Of a DNA stretch of 64,000 nt, positions 8,172 to 64,000 are shown piece by piece (the first letter of the stretch is position 1; each line of letters opens with the position of its first letter). The position numbers and the translations under genes were made by a program. The stretch spans positions 16,591-80,590 of the forward strand of contig CAZWKA010000003.1 in assembly GCA_964634875.1 (NCBI GenBank), read 5' to 3'. The notes under the pieces were generated by a model. The model searched no databases. It was not told the origin of the DNA and saw only the letters and a list, made by a program, of their open reading frames with translations. This DNA comes from an uncultured Gammaproteobacteria bacterium. GTDB taxonomy: Bacteria; Patescibacteriota; Patescibacteriia; Magasanikbacterales; GWA2-37-8.

Positions 8172-8753
8172 TTATCCCACTTGTCTTATCCAATCTCGGA
8201 TGATGCTTTGAATTCTCCCTATCTCTATTTCCGGCAATTCTCCGGTATGCATAATTATGTTTCTTGATAGTTCTAGGTCGTTAAAACGAGATGATATCCA
8301 GTGTTGATCGGGAAATAGATCGGAGAAATTCTCCCAATTAGCAACTATGATTTGAGCCAAGTTGCCAAACATTGTGTAACCTATTAACGAAGAGGATCGT
8401 GGAGTGTGGTATTTATTTTTCTCTTCTTTAGCCCTTAGATTTTCTGCTTGTTCCTGTACTTTCTTGGGAACATTGTCTTTCCACCATCCAATCCCAGCTC
8501 TCAATAAAAGTCGTTCTTCAATTAATTCTCGAACTGCGTTTTCCAAACAAAAGAACGATTGGTATGTCTTTGACATAAGACTAGCTCGATGTACTAAGAT
8601 TGGGCTGAAATCAGTTTCTTCCAAGACAGTGTCTTCCTCTTCTTTAACTATTCCCGAGTCAATCCCATCTCTCGTAAGTTTAATTAAGCTTTCGGTTGCA
8701 AGAATGCCATTAAAAACTAATTTTTTGAGCTGCTGTAAATTTGTTTTGTACAT
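8172..8753 (-). CDS. HEPN-domain protein (Rx4H motif), second gene of a two-gene cassette
   Basis: C-terminal LSRNIIMHTGEL matches Rx4-6H. Mostly helical composition. The local DNA is AT-rich, about 37% GC by eye. Confidence 0.55.
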   Translation of the reverse strand: MYKTNLQQLKKLVFNGILATESLIKLTRDGIDSGIVKEEEDTVLEETDFSPILVHRASLMSKTYQSFFCLENAVRELIEERLLLRAGIGWWKDNVPKKVQEQAENLRAKEEKNKYHTPRSSSLIGYTMFGNLAQIIVANWENFSDLFPDQHWISSRFNDLELSRNIIMHTGELPEIEIGRIQSIIRDWIRQVG

Positions 8754-8762
8754 AAGCCGGCC

Positions 8763-9389
8763 TTACTCAAATAAATTTTCTCTCAAGCTTTTAAAAATTG
8801 CACTATAGACACTTATATCAGTTGTTGCTGGCAAGTGTATTTCTATATTGTGATGGAAACTTAATGCTTTGGCTTCTTCCGGCGTTATCGGTTTTTGTGT
8901 TTTTTCATTTGTGCCACCACCTTTTTTTGTCTTCTCTTCTGTGGTTGGAGGAGGTGATATTTTAGGCGAAGCGCCAAATTTTGCTAGACCAACCAGTGCT
9001 TTATATGTCGCAAAGTATCTAGTGACCGTTTTCTCATCTTTGCCCGTAACTCGTGCCATTGCCCCTTTTATTGTATCTTCTGATTGCGTGTGCATCTCTG
9101 TATTGATTGCATAGATGTCTTTGTAGAGTTCAATTAATCTTTCCCCAATGACAAAAGGGTGGTCTTGTCGATCTTTCAGTCGGTCATAGTATTCTGTTGG
9201 AGCTCCGTCATCATTAAGTATATTAAGTCGTTTTAGAAGGGGGATTATTGCTCGGTCGTTAGAGCTTGCAAATCCCATTTGTTTAAGAAGTTCATTAGTA
9301 AATTTTTTTGGTTTTTCCGCAACTTTTATTTGTTCGAGAATAAAACTTATTTTATTGTTAGCGACCATGTAAGGGTATGTTTCTGGCAT
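8763..9389 (-). CDS. hypothetical protein, upstream partner of the HEPN gene (possible antitoxin/specificity partner)
   Basis: 208 aa. Stop lies 9 bp before the HEPN start on the same strand. No recognisable catalytic motif. Lys/Glu-rich middle region. Confidence 0.5.
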   Translation of the reverse strand: MPETYPYMVANNKISFILEQIKVAEKPKKFTNELLKQMGFASSNDRAIIPLLKRLNILNDDGAPTEYYDRLKDRQDHPFVIGERLIELYKDIYAINTEMHTQSEDTIKGAMARVTGKDEKTVTRYFATYKALVGLAKFGASPKISPPPTTEEKTKKGGGTNEKTQKPITPEEAKALSFHHNIEIHLPATTDISVYSAIFKSLRENLFE

Positions 9390-11006: not shown

Positions 11007-11137
11007 AGAGAGTAAATCAGGTTTGTGTGTGAGTATAGCACACCAGGCTGAAGGTACAAACACTACAACCGCCAGGTGTAGTGGCGGTTGCGATGTCTCT
11101 ATGGCCTTCGGATTAGCGAAGGATATGTGCAGTATAT

Positions 11138-11150
11138 GCAACTAAGTTGC
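11138..11150. promoter_or_regulatory. palindrome GCAACTAAGTTGC (copy 1 of an operator-like repeat)
   Basis: Part of the ~27-bp motif GCAACTAAGTTGCGTTTGTCAAATAGG. Sits between two minus-strand small-protein genes. Confidence 0.5.
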
Positions 11151-11179
11151 GTTTGTCAAATAGGAGTTGTGGAAAACTG

Positions 11180-27321: not shown

Positions 27322-27339
27322 TGTTTTAAAATTTTGTGT

Positions 27340-27897
27340 ATGAATATGCCGCTTAAAATTGTCGGGATTGTTGGAAGTTTACGTACAGGTTCATATAATA
27401 GGGCTCTTTTGAATGCTGCGCGTGAATTGGTGCCAGAAGGGGTTGAGCTTGAGATTTTGGAAATTAGCACCTTTCCATTATTCAACCAGGATATGGAACA
27501 AAATTTGCCGCCTGATGTGGTGCAATTCAAAGAAAAAATTAAAGCCGCGGACGCTGTGCTTTTTGTAACTCCGGAATATAACTACTCTATCCCGGGTGTT
27601 TTGAAAAATGCCATTGACTGGGGTTCACGTCCCTATGGCCAGAATAGTTTTGACGACAAGCCGGTGGCTATAATGGGTGCGTCGATGGGGATGCTCGGGA
27701 GCGCTCGCGCTCAATACCAGCTCCGCCAGACGTTTGTCTTTTTGAATATGCACGCTGTTAACCGACCCGAGGTGATGGTGCCGAGCGTGCAGGATAAGGT
27801 TGATCAAAACGGTGTTGTTACTGACGCACATACTCGGGACAAGATACGAGAATTGCTCGAAGCGCTGGTTGGCCATACTCGTCGTTTGAACCACTAG
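27340..27897 (+). CDS. NAD(P)H-dependent FMN reductase (flavodoxin-like fold)
   Basis: LKIVGIVGSLRTGSYNRALL ... PEYNYSIPGVLKNAIDW. Confidence 0.8.
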   Translation: MNMPLKIVGIVGSLRTGSYNRALLNAARELVPEGVELEILEISTFPLFNQDMEQNLPPDVVQFKEKIKAADAVLFVTPEYNYSIPGVLKNAIDWGSRPYGQNSFDDKPVAIMGASMGMLGSARAQYQLRQTFVFLNMHAVNRPEVMVPSVQDKVDQNGVVTDAHTRDKIRELLEALVGHTRRLNH

Positions 27898-28012
27898 CCT
27901 GTCAATAAAAAAATTCATTTTCAGTCTCTTGTTTGATTGAAAGAGGGTTTTTAGGTATACTTATCTTGCTTGCGGATCCATTTTTTTAAGGGTACGGATG
28001 GGATCAGTCAGA

Positions 28013-28041
28013 TTGACAAAACCCTTAAAAAGGGATAGAAT
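28013..28041 (+). promoter_or_regulatory. near-consensus sigma70 promoter TTGACA-N17-TAGAAT
   Basis: Seen directly. The -35 element sits in the loop of a 9-bp hairpin (TTTAAGGG...CCCTTAAA). Confidence 0.6.
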
Positions 28042-28069
28042 ATCTAATCAATAGTTATTCAAACGTGGT

Positions 28070-28792
28070 ATGAAACGAGTTTTGCCTTTGGCTACGGTTG
28101 ACCCGTCAACCAAAAACCGGCCCACTTATTACAAGGTCATGGAAGTAGTTGGCATGACTATTTTCGCGATCTACATGGTTCTTTTGGCTAGTTTGCTGAT
28201 TCGTTCAGCAGGCGTTTTTGATTTTACCCTGATGGGCTTGGCGCTTATTTTAATCCTGCCTATCGCAGGGTATATTTTGGCTGATTTTTTTTCGGGTTTT
28301 GTTCATTTTTTAGGCGACACATTTGGTACAGAAGATATTCCCTTTTTCGGGCCTCATTTTATCCGGCCGTTCCGCGCTCATCATATTGATGAAAAAGAAA
28401 TTACTCGGCATGGGTTTATTGAAGTAAATGGTACAAATTGTATTATTTCACTGGTAGTTATTGTTCCGGCTTTTTACTGGCTGCCCATCATGAGTTCGTT
28501 TACCTATTTTTTGATCGGTGAAGTGATTTGGTTCATGATTCTTTCGATTTTTTTGACTAACCAAATCCATAAATGGGCTCACCAAGATAAACCACCCGCT
28601 TTCATCCGTTTTTTGCAGCGGTACCGCCTTATCCTGTCGCCTGAACATCATCAGGTGCACCATACTGCGCCGTTTGCAACGTATTACTGCATCACCTCTG
28701 GCTGGTTGAACGCACTACTCGCTAAACTTCATTTTTTTGACGGTATTGAGCGTATTTTCAAGTCAAAAAATTCCCAAAATAAAATTGTTTAA
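28070..28792 (+). CDS. membrane lipid desaturase of the CarF/TMEM189(PEDS1)-like family
   Basis: Multi-TM protein with His boxes HIDEKEITRHG, NQIHKWAHQ and HHQVHH. Confidence 0.55.
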   Translation: MKRVLPLATVDPSTKNRPTYYKVMEVVGMTIFAIYMVLLASLLIRSAGVFDFTLMGLALILILPIAGYILADFFSGFVHFLGDTFGTEDIPFFGPHFIRPFRAHHIDEKEITRHGFIEVNGTNCIISLVVIVPAFYWLPIMSSFTYFLIGEVIWFMILSIFLTNQIHKWAHQDKPPAFIRFLQRYRLILSPEHHQVHHTAPFATYYCITSGWLNALLAKLHFFDGIERIFKSKNSQNKIV

Positions 28793-28825
28793 AGCTAGGG
28801 TGAGTGGTCTGCTAGCTTGGTATCC

Positions 28826-28862
28826 CGATCTGCCTGTGGCAGGTCGGTTTTTTAATTTTGAG
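28826..28862 (+). terminator. rho-independent terminator
   Basis: CGATCTGCC-tgtg-GCAGGTCGG followed by TTTTTT. Confidence 0.7.
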
Positions 28863-34349: not shown

Positions 34350-36398
34350 ATGCCTGCTAAACCTCAGCATTTCAGCAAGACGCCGACGCATTCCCAGGTA
34401 AAATCGAGACTGGCCGGTATTTTAATACTCGTTGTTTTTTGTGCAGTTGTGGCTGCGCCAGCCTACGCCAATAAAGGTATTGATTGGGTAAACAACACCG
34501 CCAACCTCGGGTTGCCCCGATTACCGGATAACGGTTACAACCTTGGTCTTGATCTCCAGGGTGGCGCACACCTCGTGTACCAAGCGAAAACAGATGCTAT
34601 TGCCGAAGCTGATAAAGCTAGTTCGGTTGAGGGTGTGCGTGATGTTATCGAGCGTCGTGTCCGTGGTGGTTTGGGTGTATCAGAACCGCTCGTCCAGACG
34701 ACTAAGGTTGGGAGTGATTACCGCATCATTGTTGAACTGCCTGGCGTGACGGATGTTAATCAGGCGATTAAGAGTATTGGCGAAACACCTGTTCTAGAAT
34801 TTAAAGAAGAAAATACTGCCCCACCACGGGAATTGACTGCAGCCGAAACAAAACAGCTCACTGATTTTAATAAAGCCGCTGATACAAAAGCGAAAGAAGC
34901 CCTTCGGGCAGTGCAGCGCGGCATGAACTTTGCTGAAGCCGCGGCTAAGTATAGTGAGGATGAAAAAACTAAGACCGCCGGCGGAGATCTAGGTTTTATT
35001 GATGAGACCGTCTATCCAGAATTATTTGCCTGGGCTAAAACCCACAAAGTAAATGAAGTCGGTAATGCTTTGGTTACGACGCCGACAGGTCTGAATGTCG
35101 TAAAAAAAGTAGCAGAAAAAGAGGGTGAAAAAGAAGTTACAGCTTCGCACTTGCTGATTTGTTTTGCCGGTGCCACGCGCTGTGATGACGCGCAATATTC
35201 TAAGGAAGATGCTCTTAAGAAAATCCAGGAAATTAAAGCAACGATTACTCCAAAAAACTTTGCCGAAAAGGCAAAAGAATTTTCGACTGAACCCGGGGCT
35301 GACCAGAGCGGTGGCGTACTTGGCACTTTTAAAAAAGGAGCTTTGGTAAAACCGTTTGAGGATGCTGTTTGGGATCAGAAAGTTGATACCATTTCTGAGC
35401 CAGTGGAAACGGAGTTTGGTTACCATCTTATCCATAAGACCGGTGAGGCAATCGCTAAGCAGTACCAGGTTGCTCGCATTTTGGTAGCCACTAAAACCAA
35501 GACAGATATCGTCCCACCAGCAGAACAGTGGAAATCAAGCGGCCTTACCGGTAAGCAGCTCGAACGAGCCGAGGTTACCCAAAACCAAATTACCGGAGAT
35601 ATCCAGGTAAGCCTTAATTTTGATGATGAAGGTTCTAAGTTATTTGCTGATATTACCGGCCGTAATGTGGGGAAAGCAGTAGCTGTTTTCCTTGACGGTG
35701 AAATTATCAGTGCCCCGGTTGTTAACGCGGCAATTACCACGGGGAGTGCGGTAATTACGGGTGGGTTTAGCTTGACTGACGCTAAGCTTTTGGCGCAGCG
35801 CCTTAATTCAGGTGCGTTGCCGGTACCAGTTGAGCTCCTCAGCCAGCAAACCGTGGACGCTACGCTTGGTGCTGATTCGCTTGATAAGAGTTTCCGTGCT
35901 GGTGTCTTTGGTTTGATTGCAGTTATGGTCTTTATGATTCTTTATTACCGCTTACCAGGCCTTTTGTCCGTACTATCCTTGGCTTTCTACGCCCTCCTGA
36001 GTTTGGCGGTATTCAAATTGATGGGTGTAACATTGACGCTCTCTGGTATTGCTGGGTTTATTCTTTCCATCGGTATGGCGGTTGACGCTAATGTGCTTGT
36101 ATTCGAGCGTCTTAAAGAAGAGTTGGCTGCGGGTCGAACGCTTAAGTCAGCTACTGAAGAAGCCTTTATTCGTTCGTGGCCTTCAATTCGTGATAGTCAT
36201 ATTACCGCCCTCATCAGCTGTGTCTTCTTGATTTGGTTTGGTACTGGGTTTATCCAAGGTTTTGCCGTTATCTTGGGAATTGGTACTTTAATTAACCTGT
36301 TTACCGCCATCACGGTAACGAGGACAGTCATGCGGTCGGTTTTCCCTTTCCTTAATGAAAAAGGAAATATTCTCTTTTTAGGATATAAAAAAGATTAA
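34350..36398 (+). CDS. secD: protein translocase subunit SecD with two inserted parvulin-type PPIase domains
   Basis: The SecD N-terminal TM helix and C-terminal 6-TM RND-like domain are present. Two parvulin signatures are inserted in the periplasmic domain: AGGDLGFIDETV and SGGVLGTFKKGALVKPFEDAVW. Confidence 0.8.
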   Translation: MPAKPQHFSKTPTHSQVKSRLAGILILVVFCAVVAAPAYANKGIDWVNNTANLGLPRLPDNGYNLGLDLQGGAHLVYQAKTDAIAEADKASSVEGVRDVIERRVRGGLGVSEPLVQTTKVGSDYRIIVELPGVTDVNQAIKSIGETPVLEFKEENTAPPRELTAAETKQLTDFNKAADTKAKEALRAVQRGMNFAEAAAKYSEDEKTKTAGGDLGFIDETVYPELFAWAKTHKVNEVGNALVTTPTGLNVVKKVAEKEGEKEVTASHLLICFAGATRCDDAQYSKEDALKKIQEIKATITPKNFAEKAKEFSTEPGADQSGGVLGTFKKGALVKPFEDAVWDQKVDTISEPVETEFGYHLIHKTGEAIAKQYQVARILVATKTKTDIVPPAEQWKSSGLTGKQLERAEVTQNQITGDIQVSLNFDDEGSKLFADITGRNVGKAVAVFLDGEIISAPVVNAAITTGSAVITGGFSLTDAKLLAQRLNSGALPVPVELLSQQTVDATLGADSLDKSFRAGVFGLIAVMVFMILYYRLPGLLSVLSLAFYALLSLAVFKLMGVTLTLSGIAGFILSIGMAVDANVLVFERLKEELAAGRTLKSATEEAFIRSWPSIRDSHITALISCVFLIWFGTGFIQGFAVILGIGTLINLFTAITVTRTVMRSVFPFLNEKGNILFLGYKKD

Positions 36399-48942: not shown

Positions 48943-51498
48943 TTATAACGTAGCTTCGCTGAAATCTATATCATCAGGTTTGCTGGAACCAAGCTGGGCA
49001 CGATCCATGATTTCGGCATTGACGATCTCGCGCGGACGGCCATATTTGAGGCGGGAAAGTTCTTTGATGGCAGCCGCTAGTTCCTTGTTACCTTCTTTGG
49101 GACCGTATGTCAACATATTAAAAGGTTTGGCAGCAGTATTGTCGATAAGAAGTTTAATATACGCAGTATATTGTTCGACGTTAATCAGGTCGTACGCACC
49201 AAATACAGGCGCGAATTCCTTGGCGAGAACTTCGGCGTCTTCAACACCGATACGGAAGGAAACAAGTGTGCCCGCGTTACCAAGCACGGCGTCGCGCACT
49301 GTGGTTTTACCTTTGTTGTCTTCAAGTTGCTTCATGTACTGGTGGGCAATGATTAACTCTAAGCGATACTTGCGAGCTTCGGATAAAATGGTGGCAATCG
49401 AGTCAGTAATAAAGTTTTGGAACTCATCGATGTAGAGGAAAAAGTCGTTGCGCTGGTCTTCTGGAAGCGAGGCGCGCTCCAGGGCAGCCATCTGAAGTTT
49501 GCTTACAATAATCATGCCCATCAGGTTGGCATTAATTTCACCCACTAAACCTTTGGCTAGGTTAACGAGGAGAATTTTTTTACCATCCATCACTTCGCGG
49601 AAATTAAAGCCGGAATGTGATTGGCCGATGATGTTACGAACCATTTCGTTTTCAACAAAACGTCCGACTTTGGAGATGAGATAGCCGAGCATTTCTGATT
49701 TGTGGAAGTCAGATGTTTTAGCCATTTCTTTATCCCAATAAGCGCGCACCACCGGATCTTTCAGTTTTTTCTTCCACTGATTTACAAAGGTGTCGTCGCT
49801 GAACATGCGGGGAATTTCAGCAATAGTGCCCGGGTTTTCAAGGTCCGACATGAGGGTTAACATGACGTTGCGCATGTTATGCTCAAACATTGGACCGATC
49901 ATCGACGGATCAGTAACCATTTTATAAAAAATGGAGATCATTTCTTGAGTGGCAAAGTCTTTTTGTTCCTCGCTTCTGACCTCGAGCATGTTCAGGCCGA
50001 TCGGGCGTTCAATGTCTGAGGGGTTGAAATAAATAACATCGTCGGCACGCTCTTTGGGGACGTGTTGCAGTACGTATTCGACAAAGTCACCGTGGGGATC
50101 GATAACACAGACCCCCTCACCGTTTTGGATGTCTTGAACTGCCAGGTTTTGGATAAAGACCGATTTACCGCCACCCGATTTACCGATGACATAGAGGTGT
50201 CGCCGGCGGTCGGAAACTTTCATTTTTACGAGTGTTTCTTCGCCACGGTACATGGCGCGTCCTAAGAGGAGGCCTTCTTTAGGCATGTTGGCTGGCGGCG
50301 GCGCTTTACGGGCTCCGAGCCAGTTAATGTGAGGGGTTTCGGTGTGAGGGACGGGAAGGTGCCAAAAACTAGCCATCTCCTCGGTATTCATAACCATGTA
50401 AAAACCTTCGCGCATGGAGCGATAGATCGACTCTTGGATCAGTGCGGTTTGGCGACGGGGGATGGCTGCGCCAAACGAATTGCCGTAACGGTAAATATTG
50501 TACTGGCTGAAGGAGTTGATGATGTTCTCAAGATTCAATTGGGCTTTTTCTTTGCTAGCAGCTGAGCTGATGAGGCGGATTGTAACTTCAAGTCCGCCGT
50601 GGCTGATTTTTTCTTCCATGTTTTTGACCATCTCTTCTTCCATTTGGGTGAGGTGGTATTTTTCACTGGCTGGTTTACTTGGGTCGTGCTTTTTTGGGAA
50701 AAGCAATTTGCCCAACTTCCCAATTTGGTGGAAAAAAGCGATGCGGTTGGCAACATCCTCAAATTTTTGGCCTTCGCGGATTTCGCGGATGATGTGCACA
50801 GCTTCATGGCGCCATTTTCCGCTGGCTGGACGGACGACATATTGGATGATAGCACCTTCATCTTCAGCGATTTTGCTCAGCGGGTTGAGGATGGAAAGAA
50901 GCGGGTCAGCGTCCATTTTTTTGTAGGTTTTGAAAGGAAAAATTGATTTGTGTTTGAACCACAAATAAGCTCCAACAACATGGCTCGTTGGCTTAAAAAT
51001 GTTATAATCGCTTTCCTCGGTAATTTCGGCGTGTGGATACTGGGCATGGATTTGTTGTTCGACCAGGTCGCGGATTTTATCAGGTACGGCAACGTAAAAT
51101 GAGATTTTGTTTTCTTTTACGACAATTTCAAAAGCAATATGGTCATTGCGTCCGCGCAGCCAAGGGCCCAGTCCTTTTTCTTTGTGCAAACCGGCGATGG
51201 AAGAAAAGAAAGTGTCAGCAACGGCGATTTGTTCACGGACCTGGTTGATATTGTCTTCATTGCCACCTTCTTGTTTTTCACTTTTTCTTTCTTTGGGGAC
51301 ACGGATAAGGAAGATGGTGCGGTGGAATGCCTTGCCTGCTTTATTTTTAGCGTGCAAAACCCCTCGAGCCGTAAACAAAATAGCCAGGAAAATTCCGACT
51401 ATGATAAGGCAGAAGAAAATAGCCGCGCTAATCGGGCTCGCTAGAGCGGCGTTGGCCGCTTCCCTTAGAAAATCAATAAAAGGGGTCAAGAGTTCCAT
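48943..51498 (-). CDS. membrane-anchored FtsK/HerA-superfamily ATPase, VirB4/TraC-like (N-terminal TM + ~420-aa domain + P-loop NTPase)
   Basis: Walker A VIGKSGGGKS, Walker B FFLYIDEF, then EARKYRLELIIAHQY (RKxG...TQ-like). Confidence 0.55.
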   Translation of the reverse strand: MELLTPFIDFLREAANAALASPISAAIFFCLIIVGIFLAILFTARGVLHAKNKAGKAFHRTIFLIRVPKERKSEKQEGGNEDNINQVREQIAVADTFFSSIAGLHKEKGLGPWLRGRNDHIAFEIVVKENKISFYVAVPDKIRDLVEQQIHAQYPHAEITEESDYNIFKPTSHVVGAYLWFKHKSIFPFKTYKKMDADPLLSILNPLSKIAEDEGAIIQYVVRPASGKWRHEAVHIIREIREGQKFEDVANRIAFFHQIGKLGKLLFPKKHDPSKPASEKYHLTQMEEEMVKNMEEKISHGGLEVTIRLISSAASKEKAQLNLENIINSFSQYNIYRYGNSFGAAIPRRQTALIQESIYRSMREGFYMVMNTEEMASFWHLPVPHTETPHINWLGARKAPPPANMPKEGLLLGRAMYRGEETLVKMKVSDRRRHLYVIGKSGGGKSVFIQNLAVQDIQNGEGVCVIDPHGDFVEYVLQHVPKERADDVIYFNPSDIERPIGLNMLEVRSEEQKDFATQEMISIFYKMVTDPSMIGPMFEHNMRNVMLTLMSDLENPGTIAEIPRMFSDDTFVNQWKKKLKDPVVRAYWDKEMAKTSDFHKSEMLGYLISKVGRFVENEMVRNIIGQSHSGFNFREVMDGKKILLVNLAKGLVGEINANLMGMIIVSKLQMAALERASLPEDQRNDFFLYIDEFQNFITDSIATILSEARKYRLELIIAHQYMKQLEDNKGKTTVRDAVLGNAGTLVSFRIGVEDAEVLAKEFAPVFGAYDLINVEQYTAYIKLLIDNTAAKPFNMLTYGPKEGNKELAAAIKELSRLKYGRPREIVNAEIMDRAQLGSSKPDDIDFSEATL

Positions 51499-53822: not shown

Positions 53823-54998
53823 ATGTTTTTTTCCAAGCCAAAGTCTTTTTTAGGCATTGATTTTGGAGCTGGCGGCATTAAGCTTGTTGAGCTCAAACAA
53901 GAAAAGAATCGTCCGGTTCTTTTTACGTACGCAATTGCTCTTGAATCACAGGACATCCATCGTGTTTTGAAGCCGGGCGCTGAACGAACGCTTGGGGATC
54001 TGTTGAAAGAAAAAACCTTACCGGAAACGCGTCCGGCGAGCCAGGTTCAGACTGAAACAGTTGCCGCCCCAGAAGACGGCCTCGATGCGGCGAAGATTGC
54101 ACGTTATGCAGCGCTTATCCGATCGGTTTGCAAACAGGCGCGTACCGTGAGCACGACGGCGGTAGTCAGTTTGCCGGTGTCAGCAGTGTTCCACACTATT
54201 GTTAATTTGCCGATTGTTAAAAAGGATGAGATTGATGCTCTTTTAAAAGCCGAGATACGCAAATTACTGCCGTATAAGCTGGAAGACACCGCCCTTGATT
54301 ATGAGCTTTTGCCGCACGCACCTGATGCTAAGGTGCAGACGGTTTTAGTCAATGCGGTTCCGAATAGCATGGTTTTGTTTTTTTCCAAGGTTTTTCAGCA
54401 GGCTGGTCTAAAGTTACATGCTTTAGAACCTGAATCAGTAGCTCTGGCTCGTTCGCTTATTGGCCGCGATACAGCGCTCACAATGATTATCGATATTGGT
54501 GCGGAGCGAACAAATTTTTTTATCATTGATCAGACCGTCCCGATTACGCACCATAGCATCGAGCTCGGGGGCAACAGAATAAATAAAAACCTGGCGAACA
54601 TGCTCGGAGTTGATGATGGTGTGGTAGAACGCCTAAAAGAAGACCTTTTTAATTACCTGCTCCGGTACCCTGAAACAGCTGGTATTGGTCGTGAAAAGTT
54701 TTTAGCATTGTTTACGACTGTGGTTGATCCGATAATGAAAGAGATTGCCTATAGTTTCAACTTGTATCTGCGGCAAACCTGGAATGAAGCCAAGCGTCCG
54801 GAAAAAATTATTTTGACTGGTGGCGGCGGGTTATTTCCTTTTTTAGCTGATTTTATTAGTGAAACCTTTAAGATCAAATGCTATATTGGTGACCCTTGGG
54901 GACGCGTGGTCTATCCCGACACTTTAAAGCCCGTGCTGCGTGATATCGGGCCACGTATGGCGGTTGCGATTGGCCTTGCGCTCAAGAATCTGGTATAA
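53823..54998 (+). CDS. pilM: type IV pilus assembly protein PilM (actin-like ATPase fold)
   Basis: N-terminal LGIDFGAGGIKLVEL. Overall actin/Hsp70-like pattern with a C-terminal ILTGGGG. Confidence 0.75.
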   Translation: MFFSKPKSFLGIDFGAGGIKLVELKQEKNRPVLFTYAIALESQDIHRVLKPGAERTLGDLLKEKTLPETRPASQVQTETVAAPEDGLDAAKIARYAALIRSVCKQARTVSTTAVVSLPVSAVFHTIVNLPIVKKDEIDALLKAEIRKLLPYKLEDTALDYELLPHAPDAKVQTVLVNAVPNSMVLFFSKVFQQAGLKLHALEPESVALARSLIGRDTALTMIIDIGAERTNFFIIDQTVPITHHSIELGGNRINKNLANMLGVDDGVVERLKEDLFNYLLRYPETAGIGREKFLALFTTVVDPIMKEIAYSFNLYLRQTWNEAKRPEKIILTGGGGLFPFLADFISETFKIKCYIGDPWGRVVYPDTLKPVLRDIGPRMAVAIGLALKNLV

Positions 54999-55050
54999 CT
55001 AAATGGTAAGCGAGTTCAGTTTTACACTAAATCACTATTAACCATAGTCT

Positions 55051-55431
55051 ATGGACAAAGATAAAGCTCATATTTTGCTGGTAGAGGATGATGTGTTTTT
55101 ATCGAATATCTATCAGAAAAAGTTTGAAATGGAGGGGTTCAAGATCAGTACTGCAGACAATGGTGAAAAAGGTTTGGCAGATGCAAAACGCAAGAAGCCA
55201 GATATTATTTTGCTTGATGTCCTGCTGCCCAAGCTCGATGGTTTTGCTGTGCTTGAAAAATTGAAAGAAGATCCGGCGACAAAAGAAATTCCTGTCATCC
55301 TCCTGACCAACCTCGGCCAGAAAGATGATGTAGAAAAAGGCTTAGAATCTGGTGCGGCTGATTATTTGATTAAAGCCCATTTCAAACCATCGGAAGTTGT
55401 GGATAAGGTGAAAAAAATATTGCAGCAGTAG
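55051..55431 (+). CDS. single-domain response regulator (CheY/PilH-like)
   Basis: ILLVEDD ... DIILLDVLLPKLDG ... LTN...K. Confidence 0.8.
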   Translation: MDKDKAHILLVEDDVFLSNIYQKKFEMEGFKISTADNGEKGLADAKRKKPDIILLDVLLPKLDGFAVLEKLKEDPATKEIPVILLTNLGQKDDVEKGLESGAADYLIKAHFKPSEVVDKVKKILQQ

Positions 55432-55502
55432 TCTGGCCGTGGTATACTTTTCTTGAAGTTACGTATGTTAGATTTCATTCTTCCACGAAAGGGGGTGACT
55501 CT

Positions 55503-55925
55503 ATGAAAAGACAAGGTTTTACTTTGATCGAATTACTCGTTGTTATCGCGATTATTGGACTTTTGTCCACGCTCGCGGTCGTCGCCCTTGGCTCAGCCAA
55601 AGTTAAGGCCAGAGATTCCAAACGGCTTTCGGATTTAAAACAACTCCAGACAGCGCTCGAACTATATTATACTGACCAGAATAATTATCCGACCGGTACA
55701 GCAGTTACGCTTGGTGCTGGCATGTACGAATGTCTCAACGCCTCCGGTTGGGCTGCGATTGGTTGTACTAACCCGTATATGGGTAAAGTTCCATCAGACC
55801 CTAATGGTAGCGCGTATGTATATACCTACGGGACAAATACATATACCATTACTGATACGCTCGAAGGTACGGTTAACGGTTTGACTGGTGCTATCCAGCT
55901 GACCCCTTCAGGTATTGGGCAATAA
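55503..55925 (+). CDS. type IV pilin (prepilin with class III signal)
   Basis: MKRQGFTLIELLVVIAIIGLL is the canonical G/FTLIE prepilin leader. Confidence 0.85.
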   Translation: MKRQGFTLIELLVVIAIIGLLSTLAVVALGSAKVKARDSKRLSDLKQLQTALELYYTDQNNYPTGTAVTLGAGMYECLNASGWAAIGCTNPYMGKVPSDPNGSAYVYTYGTNTYTITDTLEGTVNGLTGAIQLTPSGIGQ

Positions 55926-56034
55926 TTTTTAACACTGAAAAATCCCTTCCAACATTCCGAGGAGGGATTTTTTTGTTTTCCTTGTCTTTTAATCTTTTCT
56001 TTACTATACTACCGTTAGTTTTTACTTCTTCCTT

Positions 56035-56826
56035 ATGGAATTTTTTCTGACCAACTGGTTCACGTATGCCTTTGTTTTTTTCTGTGGCGTGATTTTGGGC
56101 AGCTTCCTTAATTCATGGATTTGGCGGGCGTGGGAAAATGTCCGGATCATTATGGGTCGTAGTATGTGTGTGCATTGTCGGCGTACTTTGGCGTGGTATG
56201 AGAATGTGCCGATCGTGAGTTTTTTGGCTCTTGGTGGTAAATGCCGAACGTGTTTACATCCAATCCCCAAGCATTATCCGTTAGTAGAAATAGCTATGGG
56301 AGTGCTGCTTACCCTTGTTTTTGCCTACCATGTTAGTCTGCCTGTTTTTAAGGTCGGGCTTTTTTGGCGCGACATTTTTTTTACTACGTTGCTCGTGGTT
56401 ATTTTTGTTTATGACGCTTTGTATATGATAATTTTGCCGCGCGTTGTTTGGCTCGGCGCAGTTGTTGGTTTTGTTTTTAATTATTTTGTTTTAGGCATAC
56501 CACTTCGTTCGTTGATTATAGGAGCTTTGATTGGTGGTGGTATTTTTTTGATCCAGTTTATTATTTCCCGGGGACGGTGGATTGGCGGGGGTGACGTGCG
56601 ATTGGGGTTTATGATGGGTGTGTGGCTTGGTTACCCGTCGATAGTCGTCGCCCTTTTTATCGCGTATGTTGTTGGGGCTATATGTGGTGTGCTGCTTCTT
56701 GCGTTTAAAAAGAAAACCTGGCAGGCTCAAATCCCTTTTGGAACCTTTTTGGCTATCGGTACTCTGGCGAGTCTGTATGGGGGAACGCACATTATTCAAT
56801 GGTACGTCGGTCTTATTGCTGGGTAG
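56035..56826 (+). CDS. pilD: prepilin peptidase (A24 family)
   Basis: CVHCRRTL...GKCRTC zinc cluster. Multi-TM. Asp-containing motifs. Confidence 0.85.
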   Translation: MEFFLTNWFTYAFVFFCGVILGSFLNSWIWRAWENVRIIMGRSMCVHCRRTLAWYENVPIVSFLALGGKCRTCLHPIPKHYPLVEIAMGVLLTLVFAYHVSLPVFKVGLFWRDIFFTTLLVVIFVYDALYMIILPRVVWLGAVVGFVFNYFVLGIPLRSLIIGALIGGGIFLIQFIISRGRWIGGGDVRLGFMMGVWLGYPSIVVALFIAYVVGAICGVLLLAFKKKTWQAQIPFGTFLAIGTLASLYGGTHIIQWYVGLIAG

Positions 56827-63681: not shown

Positions 63682-64000
63682 TGTGTCTCTCCTTGTGTGT
63701 ACGGTTGCCCGCACTCACGAGGATTGACTGGTGGGAATGGGTCAGGTCGTTCGTGCGGTTGTTCAAACAAAAAAGACTAACGTTGGAAACTCATTGGTCG
63801 CCTCCTTGTAAAAGTGCTCGTCGTACCGGACTATCCCGGTTGTTTCGACGGTTTTTGCTCTGTGGTTAGCCAAAGGGAAAAAACCGCTAAAACAAGGCAC
63901 GGAACAAGCCAGTATAGCACAAAAAACGGGTTTTGTCAACCCCCTTTAGGAAGCTCCTGTTACAGTTTTATTGAAGAAATTCGTTGATTTTTTGTTCGAT

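Follow-up and report, generated by a model that had tools for sequence, protein, structure and literature searches.

The gene at positions 28070 to 28792 of the 64,000-nucleotide stretch of DNA analysed here (the window) appears to encode an intact, vertically maintained di-iron lipid desaturase of the CarF/PEDS1 type in a Patescibacterium, transcribed as a single-gene unit and likely to function as a plasmanyl desaturase, with the inverted repeat that surrounds the -35 box of its promoter being incidental. Taken as a whole, this explanation is favoured with somewhat better than even confidence. Membership of the family, the catalytic residues, conservation of the promoter, the DedA deletion and the lack of conservation of the hairpin are demonstrated here, whereas what the enzyme acts on and produces, its electron donor and the point at which transcription starts are inferred. 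The features of the locus are as follows.

27334 to 27897, forward strand: NADPH-dependent FMN reductase gene, the upstream neighbour (PF03358, E = 1.6e-48)
27933 to 27961, forward strand: relic promoter of a deleted DedA/VTT gene, TTGATT-N17-TATACT, identified by scan and aligning with the DedA promoters of loci L001, L003 and L091
27983 to 27993, forward strand: 5' arm of the inverted repeat, TTTTTAAGGGT, 11 nt, at the DedA deletion junction and with no counterpart in relatives
28013 to 28041, forward strand: sigma-70-type promoter of the desaturase gene, TTGACA-N17-TAGAAT, with 11 of 12 consensus positions in a promoter scan
28021 to 28031, forward strand: 3' arm of the inverted repeat, ACCCTTAAAAA, 11 nt, within the conserved spacer of the promoter and homologous to the end of the relatives' DedA gene (final codons and stop)
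28070 to 28792, forward strand: CarF/PEDS1-type membrane di-iron lipid desaturase gene, 240 aa, ATG start
28825 to 28857, forward strand: intrinsic terminator after the desaturase gene, comprising a 10-pair stem (7 G-C) followed by TTTTTT

Assignment to the CarF/PEDS1 family was proposed originally on the basis of two histidine boxes, NQIHKWAHQ and HHQVHH, both of which can be read directly from the sequence, at residues 164–172 (nt 28559–28585) and 193–198 (nt 28646–28663) of the desaturase, respectively. The profile search suggested as a check returned a match to Pfam PF10520 (Lipid_desat) of 173.4 bits against a gathering cutoff of 26.4 (E = 6.1e-51), spanning profile positions 1–167 of 175. 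PF10520 comprises CarF and PEDS1 (plasmanylethanolamine desaturase) together with plant FAD4, and the chemistry differs between them (PMC9131029, PMC8960569). Mutagenesis has shown that eight histidines are essential in all members (mouse H96, H121, H122, H187, H191, H215, H218 and H219; PMC9131029, PMC8960569). All eight are present here, as H79, H104, H105, H167, H171, H194, H197 and H198, and are invariant in alignments of 25 and 43 homologues, Myxococcus xanthus CarF included. A ninth histidine (CarF H113, mouse H131) is present in CarF, animal PEDS1 and Leptospira and not in FAD4 or alphaproteobacterial homologues (PMC9131029, PMC8960569); CarF and human PEDS1 both require it, and FAD4 and the alphaproteobacterial homologues that do not complement have another residue in its place (PMC9131029). 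Its equivalent in the desaturase is H114, located in the motif ITRH nine residues past the HH pair, which aligns with H113 of the 281-residue M. xanthus CarF taken from genome locus L073, the numbering of which reproduces H113. Aspartate and phenylalanine residues that are also essential (mouse D100 and F118; PMC8960569) have equivalents in D83 and F101, both invariant in the alignments; considered together with H114, these positions are invariant or nearly so among the 25 and 43 homologues.

The predicted membrane topology comprises four helices, as in a four-transmembrane-helix di-iron fold, and the best match to the predicted fold among solved structures is a membrane di-iron hydroxylase; a sequence search retrieved no solved structure from the CarF/PEDS1 family. 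Against the NCBIfam CarF equivalog model (NF045946) the desaturase scores 216 bits, which is below the 500-bit cutoff. However, this failure does not discriminate, since the cutoff admits only Myxococcus-like CarF proteins: M. xanthus CarF reaches 571 bits, compared with 218 bits for the homologue from Leptospira borgpetersenii, and an M. xanthus carF mutant is complemented by the homologue from L. interrogans (PMC9131029). In a neighbour-joining tree of 43 homologues from bacteria, rooted at its midpoint and not by an FAD4 or alphaproteobacterial outgroup, the desaturase falls within a Patescibacterial clade among Leptospira, Myxococcota and other bacterial clades, with a second Patescibacterial clade being placed elsewhere. 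Placement within the CarF/PEDS1 subfamily rests on the diagnostic residues and on sequence identity, as opposed to an outgroup-rooted tree. Judged from its sequence, the gene is a real and intact member of the family, with all residues known to be required in place.

By homology with characterised members, the nine histidines would be positioned at the cytoplasmic face of the membrane and would hold two iron ions, with O2 and two electrons from a reductant being used to remove two hydrogens from the chain of a membrane glycerolipid. Since the desaturase has the full set of residues on which plasmanylethanolamine desaturase activity is known to depend, the best guess is that it converts a 1-O-alkyl (plasmanyl) phospholipid to the vinyl-ether (plasmenyl) form. 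Lipid synthesis is reportedly lacking in CPR bacteria, which scavenge lipids and modify them (PMC7242380). Since Patescibacteria generally cannot make lipids, the substrate would presumably be a lipid imported from a host or neighbour, and the enzyme would constitute a remodelling step. A Pfam scan of 44 proteins from the window, which contains approximately 63 open reading frames of at least 90 aa, identified no lipid-synthesis genes in the 64 kb, and no ether-lipid genes of the AGPS, FAR, GNPAT or ElbD-like types. A 2026 survey located single plasmalogen pathway genes in several phyla, but no more than 73 bacterial genomes, the majority from Myxococcota, had the full aerobic pathway (PMC13012113). 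The availability of a plasmanyl substrate cannot therefore be taken for granted.

It is possible, albeit clearly less likely, that a member of the same family is catalysing different chemistry here, namely desaturation of an ordinary acyl chain or scavenged lipid in a host without ether lipids, in which case the protein would be a membrane-fluidity or remodelling enzyme as opposed to a plasmalogen synthase, in the manner of plant FAD4, which acts on the sn-2 16:0 chain of phosphatidylglycerol. This weight is given to a different substrate because no ether-lipid precursor genes are visible among the window proteins scanned and because PF10520 includes enzymes of differing regiospecificity, of which FAD4 is an example. 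The rarity of the full aerobic plasmalogen pathway outside the Myxococcota (PMC13012113), the sub-cutoff score on the equivalog model, and the arrangement at locus L005, where a classical PF00487 acyl desaturase gene ends only 4 nt before the CarF-type gene, all point in the same direction. However, the ninth histidine, required by CarF and human PEDS1 and substituted in FAD4, is present in the desaturase, as are the essential aspartate and phenylalanine. The desaturase also matches the L. borgpetersenii homologue in its level of identity to CarF, and the homologue from L. interrogans is able to complement. Plasmanyl desaturation remains the preferred, if provisional, assignment.

The identity of the reductant was considered with reference to neighbouring genes. 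Synteny between the FMN reductase and the desaturase is retained in L001 and L003/L004; the reductase is absent from beside the desaturase in all loci outside the closest relatives, and inspection of approximately 15 Patescibacterial loci revealed no conserved redox partner adjacent to the desaturase beyond those relatives. The FMN reductase is an attractive candidate for the electron donor, but since only the closest relatives share the linkage this remains speculation. Neighbours of the desaturase across the approximately 15 loci include SIMPL, ABC-2, cupredoxin-like, methyltransferase, DUF1189 and ClpB proteins. At L005 (4023–4997, equivalent to L012 4975–5946), where the desaturase is 53% identical, the PF00487 fatty acid desaturase gene that ends immediately upstream apparently gives rise to an operon with two different membrane desaturases in a Patescibacterium. 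In a Candidatus Magasanikiibacteriota MAG (L016, 5133–6002) the upstream gene encodes a SAM methyltransferase that weakly matches CMAS (cyclopropane/mycolic acid synthase), possibly another lipid-modifying partner. A cupredoxin-like protein is encoded directly upstream of the desaturase at L014 (5106–5504), where it comes after a DsbD_2/HMA protein, and at L021 (5515–5907), and may represent a redox or metal link. The PF00487 desaturase and CMAS-like methyltransferase neighbours fit with membrane-lipid remodelling.

A more elaborate scheme can be envisaged in which lipid-scavenging Patescibacteria turn host ether lipids into plasmalogens, or newly desaturate scavenged lipids, with the adjacent FMN reductase acting as the dedicated donor in the genus-level clade of the window organism and a DedA-type lipid transporter originally completing a small lipid-remodelling module. 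The scheme in its entirety is unlikely. Were it nevertheless correct, the FMN reductase would be the first redox partner of the CarF/PEDS1 class of enzymes to be defined in bacteria, and there would be evidence that CPR bacteria edit lipids in an O2-dependent manner.

The DedA gene itself has been lost from the window genome. In the three closest relatives with sequence upstream of the desaturase, a DedA/VTT-domain gene encoding a protein of approximately 207 aa is located between the FMN reductase and desaturase genes (regions compared: L001 4238–5000, L003 4238–5000 and L091 100–863), whereas in the window the two are separated by a spacer of only 172 nt (27898–28069). MAFFT alignment revealed that the spacer keeps the DedA promoter and roughly the last 50 nt of DedA, with approximately 570 nt deleted. 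The relic promoter thus retained is arranged in tandem with that of the desaturase, 52 nt upstream. A hairpin terminator, ATCCGTTA...TAACGGAT, with an associated T-run is present after the FMN reductase gene in L001 and L003 (L001 4236–4275). No intact stem of this terminator was found between 27895 and 27930 of the window, and read-through from the FMN reductase gene toward the desaturase is therefore possible.

The original prediction of a near-consensus promoter in front of the desaturase held up well. The -35 box, TTGACA, is at 28013–28018 and is separated by a 17-nt spacer from the -10 box, TAGAAT, at 28036–28041. Matches to TTGACA-N17-TATAAT with no more than one mismatch occur four times in the window compared with 0.24 expected from shuffles, the additional three promoters, each matching 11 of 12 consensus positions, being located as follows.

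11131 to 11159, reverse strand: promoter beginning TTGACAAA
40055 to 40083, reverse strand: promoter beginning TTGACAAA
63911 to 63939, reverse strand: promoter beginning TTGACAAA

Since all four, that of the desaturase included, begin with TTGACAAA, it would seem that promoters of this type are used by the organism. The promoter at 63911–63939 and the desaturase promoter have the longer sequence TTGACAAAACCC in common, and sharing of TTGACAAA and TTGACAAAACCC suggests an extended -35 preference in this organism.

Conservation of the promoter was assessed in the three closest loci for which upstream sequence is available, L091, L001 and L003, the desaturases of which are 74%, 71% and 69% identical to the window protein, respectively; the contigs of the closest relative, P0004 (80% identity), end inside the gene and hence are without upstream sequence. 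TTGACA is present at all three loci, in each case within the final DedA codons (Val-Asp-Lys), and is followed after 17 nt by a -10 box of the type TAnnAT, in the form of TATTAT, TAAAAT or TACAAT. The near-consensus promoter does not extend to relatives with 58% identity or less. Since TTGACA and the spacing have been kept in the window without any coding constraint, and since the non-coding -10 box is conserved, it can be argued that the promoter itself is under selection, and its conservation in three related genomes indicates that it is real. Transcription would start near 28048, which would give a leader of approximately 21 nt. Given the strong terminator 3' of the desaturase and a promoter of its own, the gene appears to be a self-contained transcription unit, read from the promoter at 28013–28041 to the terminator at 28825–28857. 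The locus also provides a small and clean example of an internal promoter, within the 3' end of an upstream gene, that has outlived the deletion of that gene.

The -35 element had also been described as lying inside a hairpin loop, with a hint that this might enable structure-dependent regulation. The first of these claims stands, since the repeat is present and is longer than reported earlier, comprising a perfect 11-nt repeat with a 27-nt loop that includes the -35 hexamer. If functional, the repeat might serve as an operator pair flanking the -35 box or, in transcripts that start from the relic DedA promoter at approximately 27968, as a leader RNA hairpin that modulates read-through into the desaturase, although a role of either type is improbable. 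Markov shuffles give an expectation of 0.64 ± 0.87 perfect 11-nt inverted repeats with loops of 3–40 nt per 64 kb, which makes the repeat locally unusual, yet the occurrence of one somewhere in the window is unsurprising. The 71-nt stretch folds as single-stranded DNA with a free energy of -10.5 kcal/mol (z = -3.4), and the presence of the tandem relic promoter upstream means that the repeat would be transcribed. However, no inverted repeat of 7 nt or longer spans the -35 box in L001, L003 or L091, despite the promoter being kept in all three, and the MAFFT alignment is in agreement; the 5' arm lies at the scar of a deletion unique to this genome, and the 3' arm is conserved promoter spacer. 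The 123-nt RNA context, representing the leader from the relic upstream promoter, has a fold that is not significant with respect to shuffles (z = -0.7), and the hairpin within this fold does not touch the ribosome-binding region, leaving the start-codon region free. The stem is not followed by a T-run and is therefore not a terminator, and extrusion of a cruciform from duplex DNA is disfavoured by a loop as long as 27 nt. The possibility that the repeat arm is a recurring regulator motif was considered and rejected, there being 9 matches in the window against 8.4 expected. AAACCC, with which the promoter spacer starts, is found also after the -35 box of the promoter at 63911–63939. Since the repeat is absent from the three relatives, in which the same position corresponds to the 3' end of the DedA gene that is deleted here, structure-dependent regulation is unsupported, and the repeat, which is not conserved, is concluded to be an incidental product, as far as can be judged from the alignments, of a lineage-specific DedA deletion rather than a regulatory device. 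A slim chance of a lineage-specific role is retained because a perfect repeat of 11 nt is locally improbable.

With regard to the host, the SecA protein encoded directly downstream of the desaturase is 70–73% identical to its best named relatives, which are from Candidatus Magasanikbacteria and the 'Patescibacteria group', and the gene content of the window is typical of Patescibacteria, with a sortase, type IV pilus genes, a TrwB-like coupling protein and sparse metabolism. Together, these observations indicate that the organism is in all likelihood a Magasanikbacteria-like Patescibacterium (CPR), a tiny bacterium of the symbiotic type. Adjacency of the desaturase and SecA genes is kept in relatives with SecA proteins that are 74–92% identical, and from this persistent synteny the desaturase gene appears to be vertically maintained. 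The alternatives, namely that the gene was acquired recently by horizontal transfer, entered the assembly through faulty binning or is a functionless relic in decay, are highly improbable, since, despite the patchy spread of the family across phyla, the two separate Patescibacterial clades in the tree and deletion of the adjoining DedA gene in this genome, the gene occupies the same position beside SecA in those relatives, is located mid-contig among typical Patescibacterial genes, and has an intact reading frame, catalytic residues, promoter and terminator.

Several other features of the window are of note. The SecD protein (34350–36398, forward strand) has PpiC-type peptidyl-prolyl isomerase (Rotamase) domains inserted ahead of the P1 head, an architecture that is also present in L001 and L003 and that represents an unusual translocon-chaperone fusion. 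A Swt1-like HEPN protein and a DUF5343 protein are encoded side by side (8172–9389, reverse strand), a pair that may constitute a toxin-antitoxin or defence module. The coupling protein (48943–51498, reverse strand) is a large TrwB/TraG-like type IV protein of 850 aa, and the type IV pilus genes (PilM, prepilin peptidase) are located nearby, at 53823–56826.

Relatives of the desaturase are present in at least 578 GTDB species when one genome is scanned per species, the taxa among the matches listed including Myxococcota, Leptospira, Patescibacteria (Magasanikiibacteriota, Uhrbacteria), Bacteroidota, Gemmatimonadota, Planctomycetota, Terriglobia and others. An exhaustive HMMER search recovered 2232 clusters at 50% identity from 1.84 billion representatives. 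The original description of the family as rare in bacteria is therefore correct insofar as the family is small, and no longer apt as regards its spread across at least 578 species and many phyla; it is not 'rare in bacteria' in the sense of the 2019–2022 literature. Many TPA MAGs with the title 'uncultured Gammaproteobacteria bacterium' (L009–L014, L017, L020, L021, L027, L028, L046, L050 and L059) have SecA proteins and neighbourhoods that match Patescibacteria, with, for example, SecA proteins that are 90–92% identical to that of the window, and the Gammaproteobacteria labels look like placeholders or errors. Additionally, the CarF protein of Comamonas sp. KCTC 72670 (L051, BNCN01000001.1) forms a tight cluster in the tree with Myxococcus CarF, and the assembly may be mislabelled or contaminated.

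The exact desaturase protein is already present in public databases, and Patescibacterial relatives carry the NCBI label 'fatty acid desaturase CarF family protein'; in the literature searched, no discussion of Patescibacterial CarF homologues with the full residue signature was found, although databases annotate them. With relatives having been annotated automatically, the modest interest of the gene resides in the role of an O2-dependent, plasmalogen-type desaturase in a lipid-scavenging Patescibacterium. Aerobic bacterial plasmalogen synthesis has so far been treated as essentially myxobacterial, with Leptospira as the exception. If the enzyme is active, then ultra-small symbionts would be editing scavenged membrane lipids with an O2-dependent enzyme, which would bear on how CPR membranes are built and on the exposure of these bacteria to oxygen.

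The closest known systems are M. xanthus CarF, the Leptospira CarF homologues, animal PEDS1 and plant FAD4. M. xanthus CarF shares with the desaturase the PF10520 domain, the predicted four-helix topology and the complete set of nine histidines needed for function, the H113 equivalent among them, with 52% identity over 171 residues that make up the catalytic core. The two differ in length (281 residues in CarF compared with 240 here), the N-terminal stretch of approximately 20 residues and the C-terminal tail of CarF being missing here, in their equivalog model scores (571 as opposed to 216 bits, relative to the cutoff of 500), and in host, which in this case is a reduced-genome Patescibacterium with no ether-lipid pathway visible in the window. 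The Leptospira homologues, at approximately 236 aa, are from a different phylum and have the same diagnostic residues as the desaturase; that of L. borgpetersenii is 47% identical over 215 residues and has a nearly equal model score (218 versus 216 bits). The L. interrogans genome contains an annotated AGPS (PMC9131029), whereas none was seen among the scanned window proteins. In animal PEDS1 (TMEM189) the spacings H-x3-D, F-x2-HH, +9 His, H-x3-H and H-x2-HH are equal to those of the desaturase, the residues matched in the mouse enzyme being, by published positions, H96/D100, F118/H121/H122, H131, H187/H191 and H215/H218/H219. Animal PEDS1 enzymes use cytochrome b5 as electron donor. Plant FAD4, the delta-3-trans desaturase of phosphatidylglycerol, has PF10520 and the eight shared histidines in common with the desaturase, but is without the ninth, which is usually replaced by Arg (PMC9131029) and which is present in the window protein as His114.
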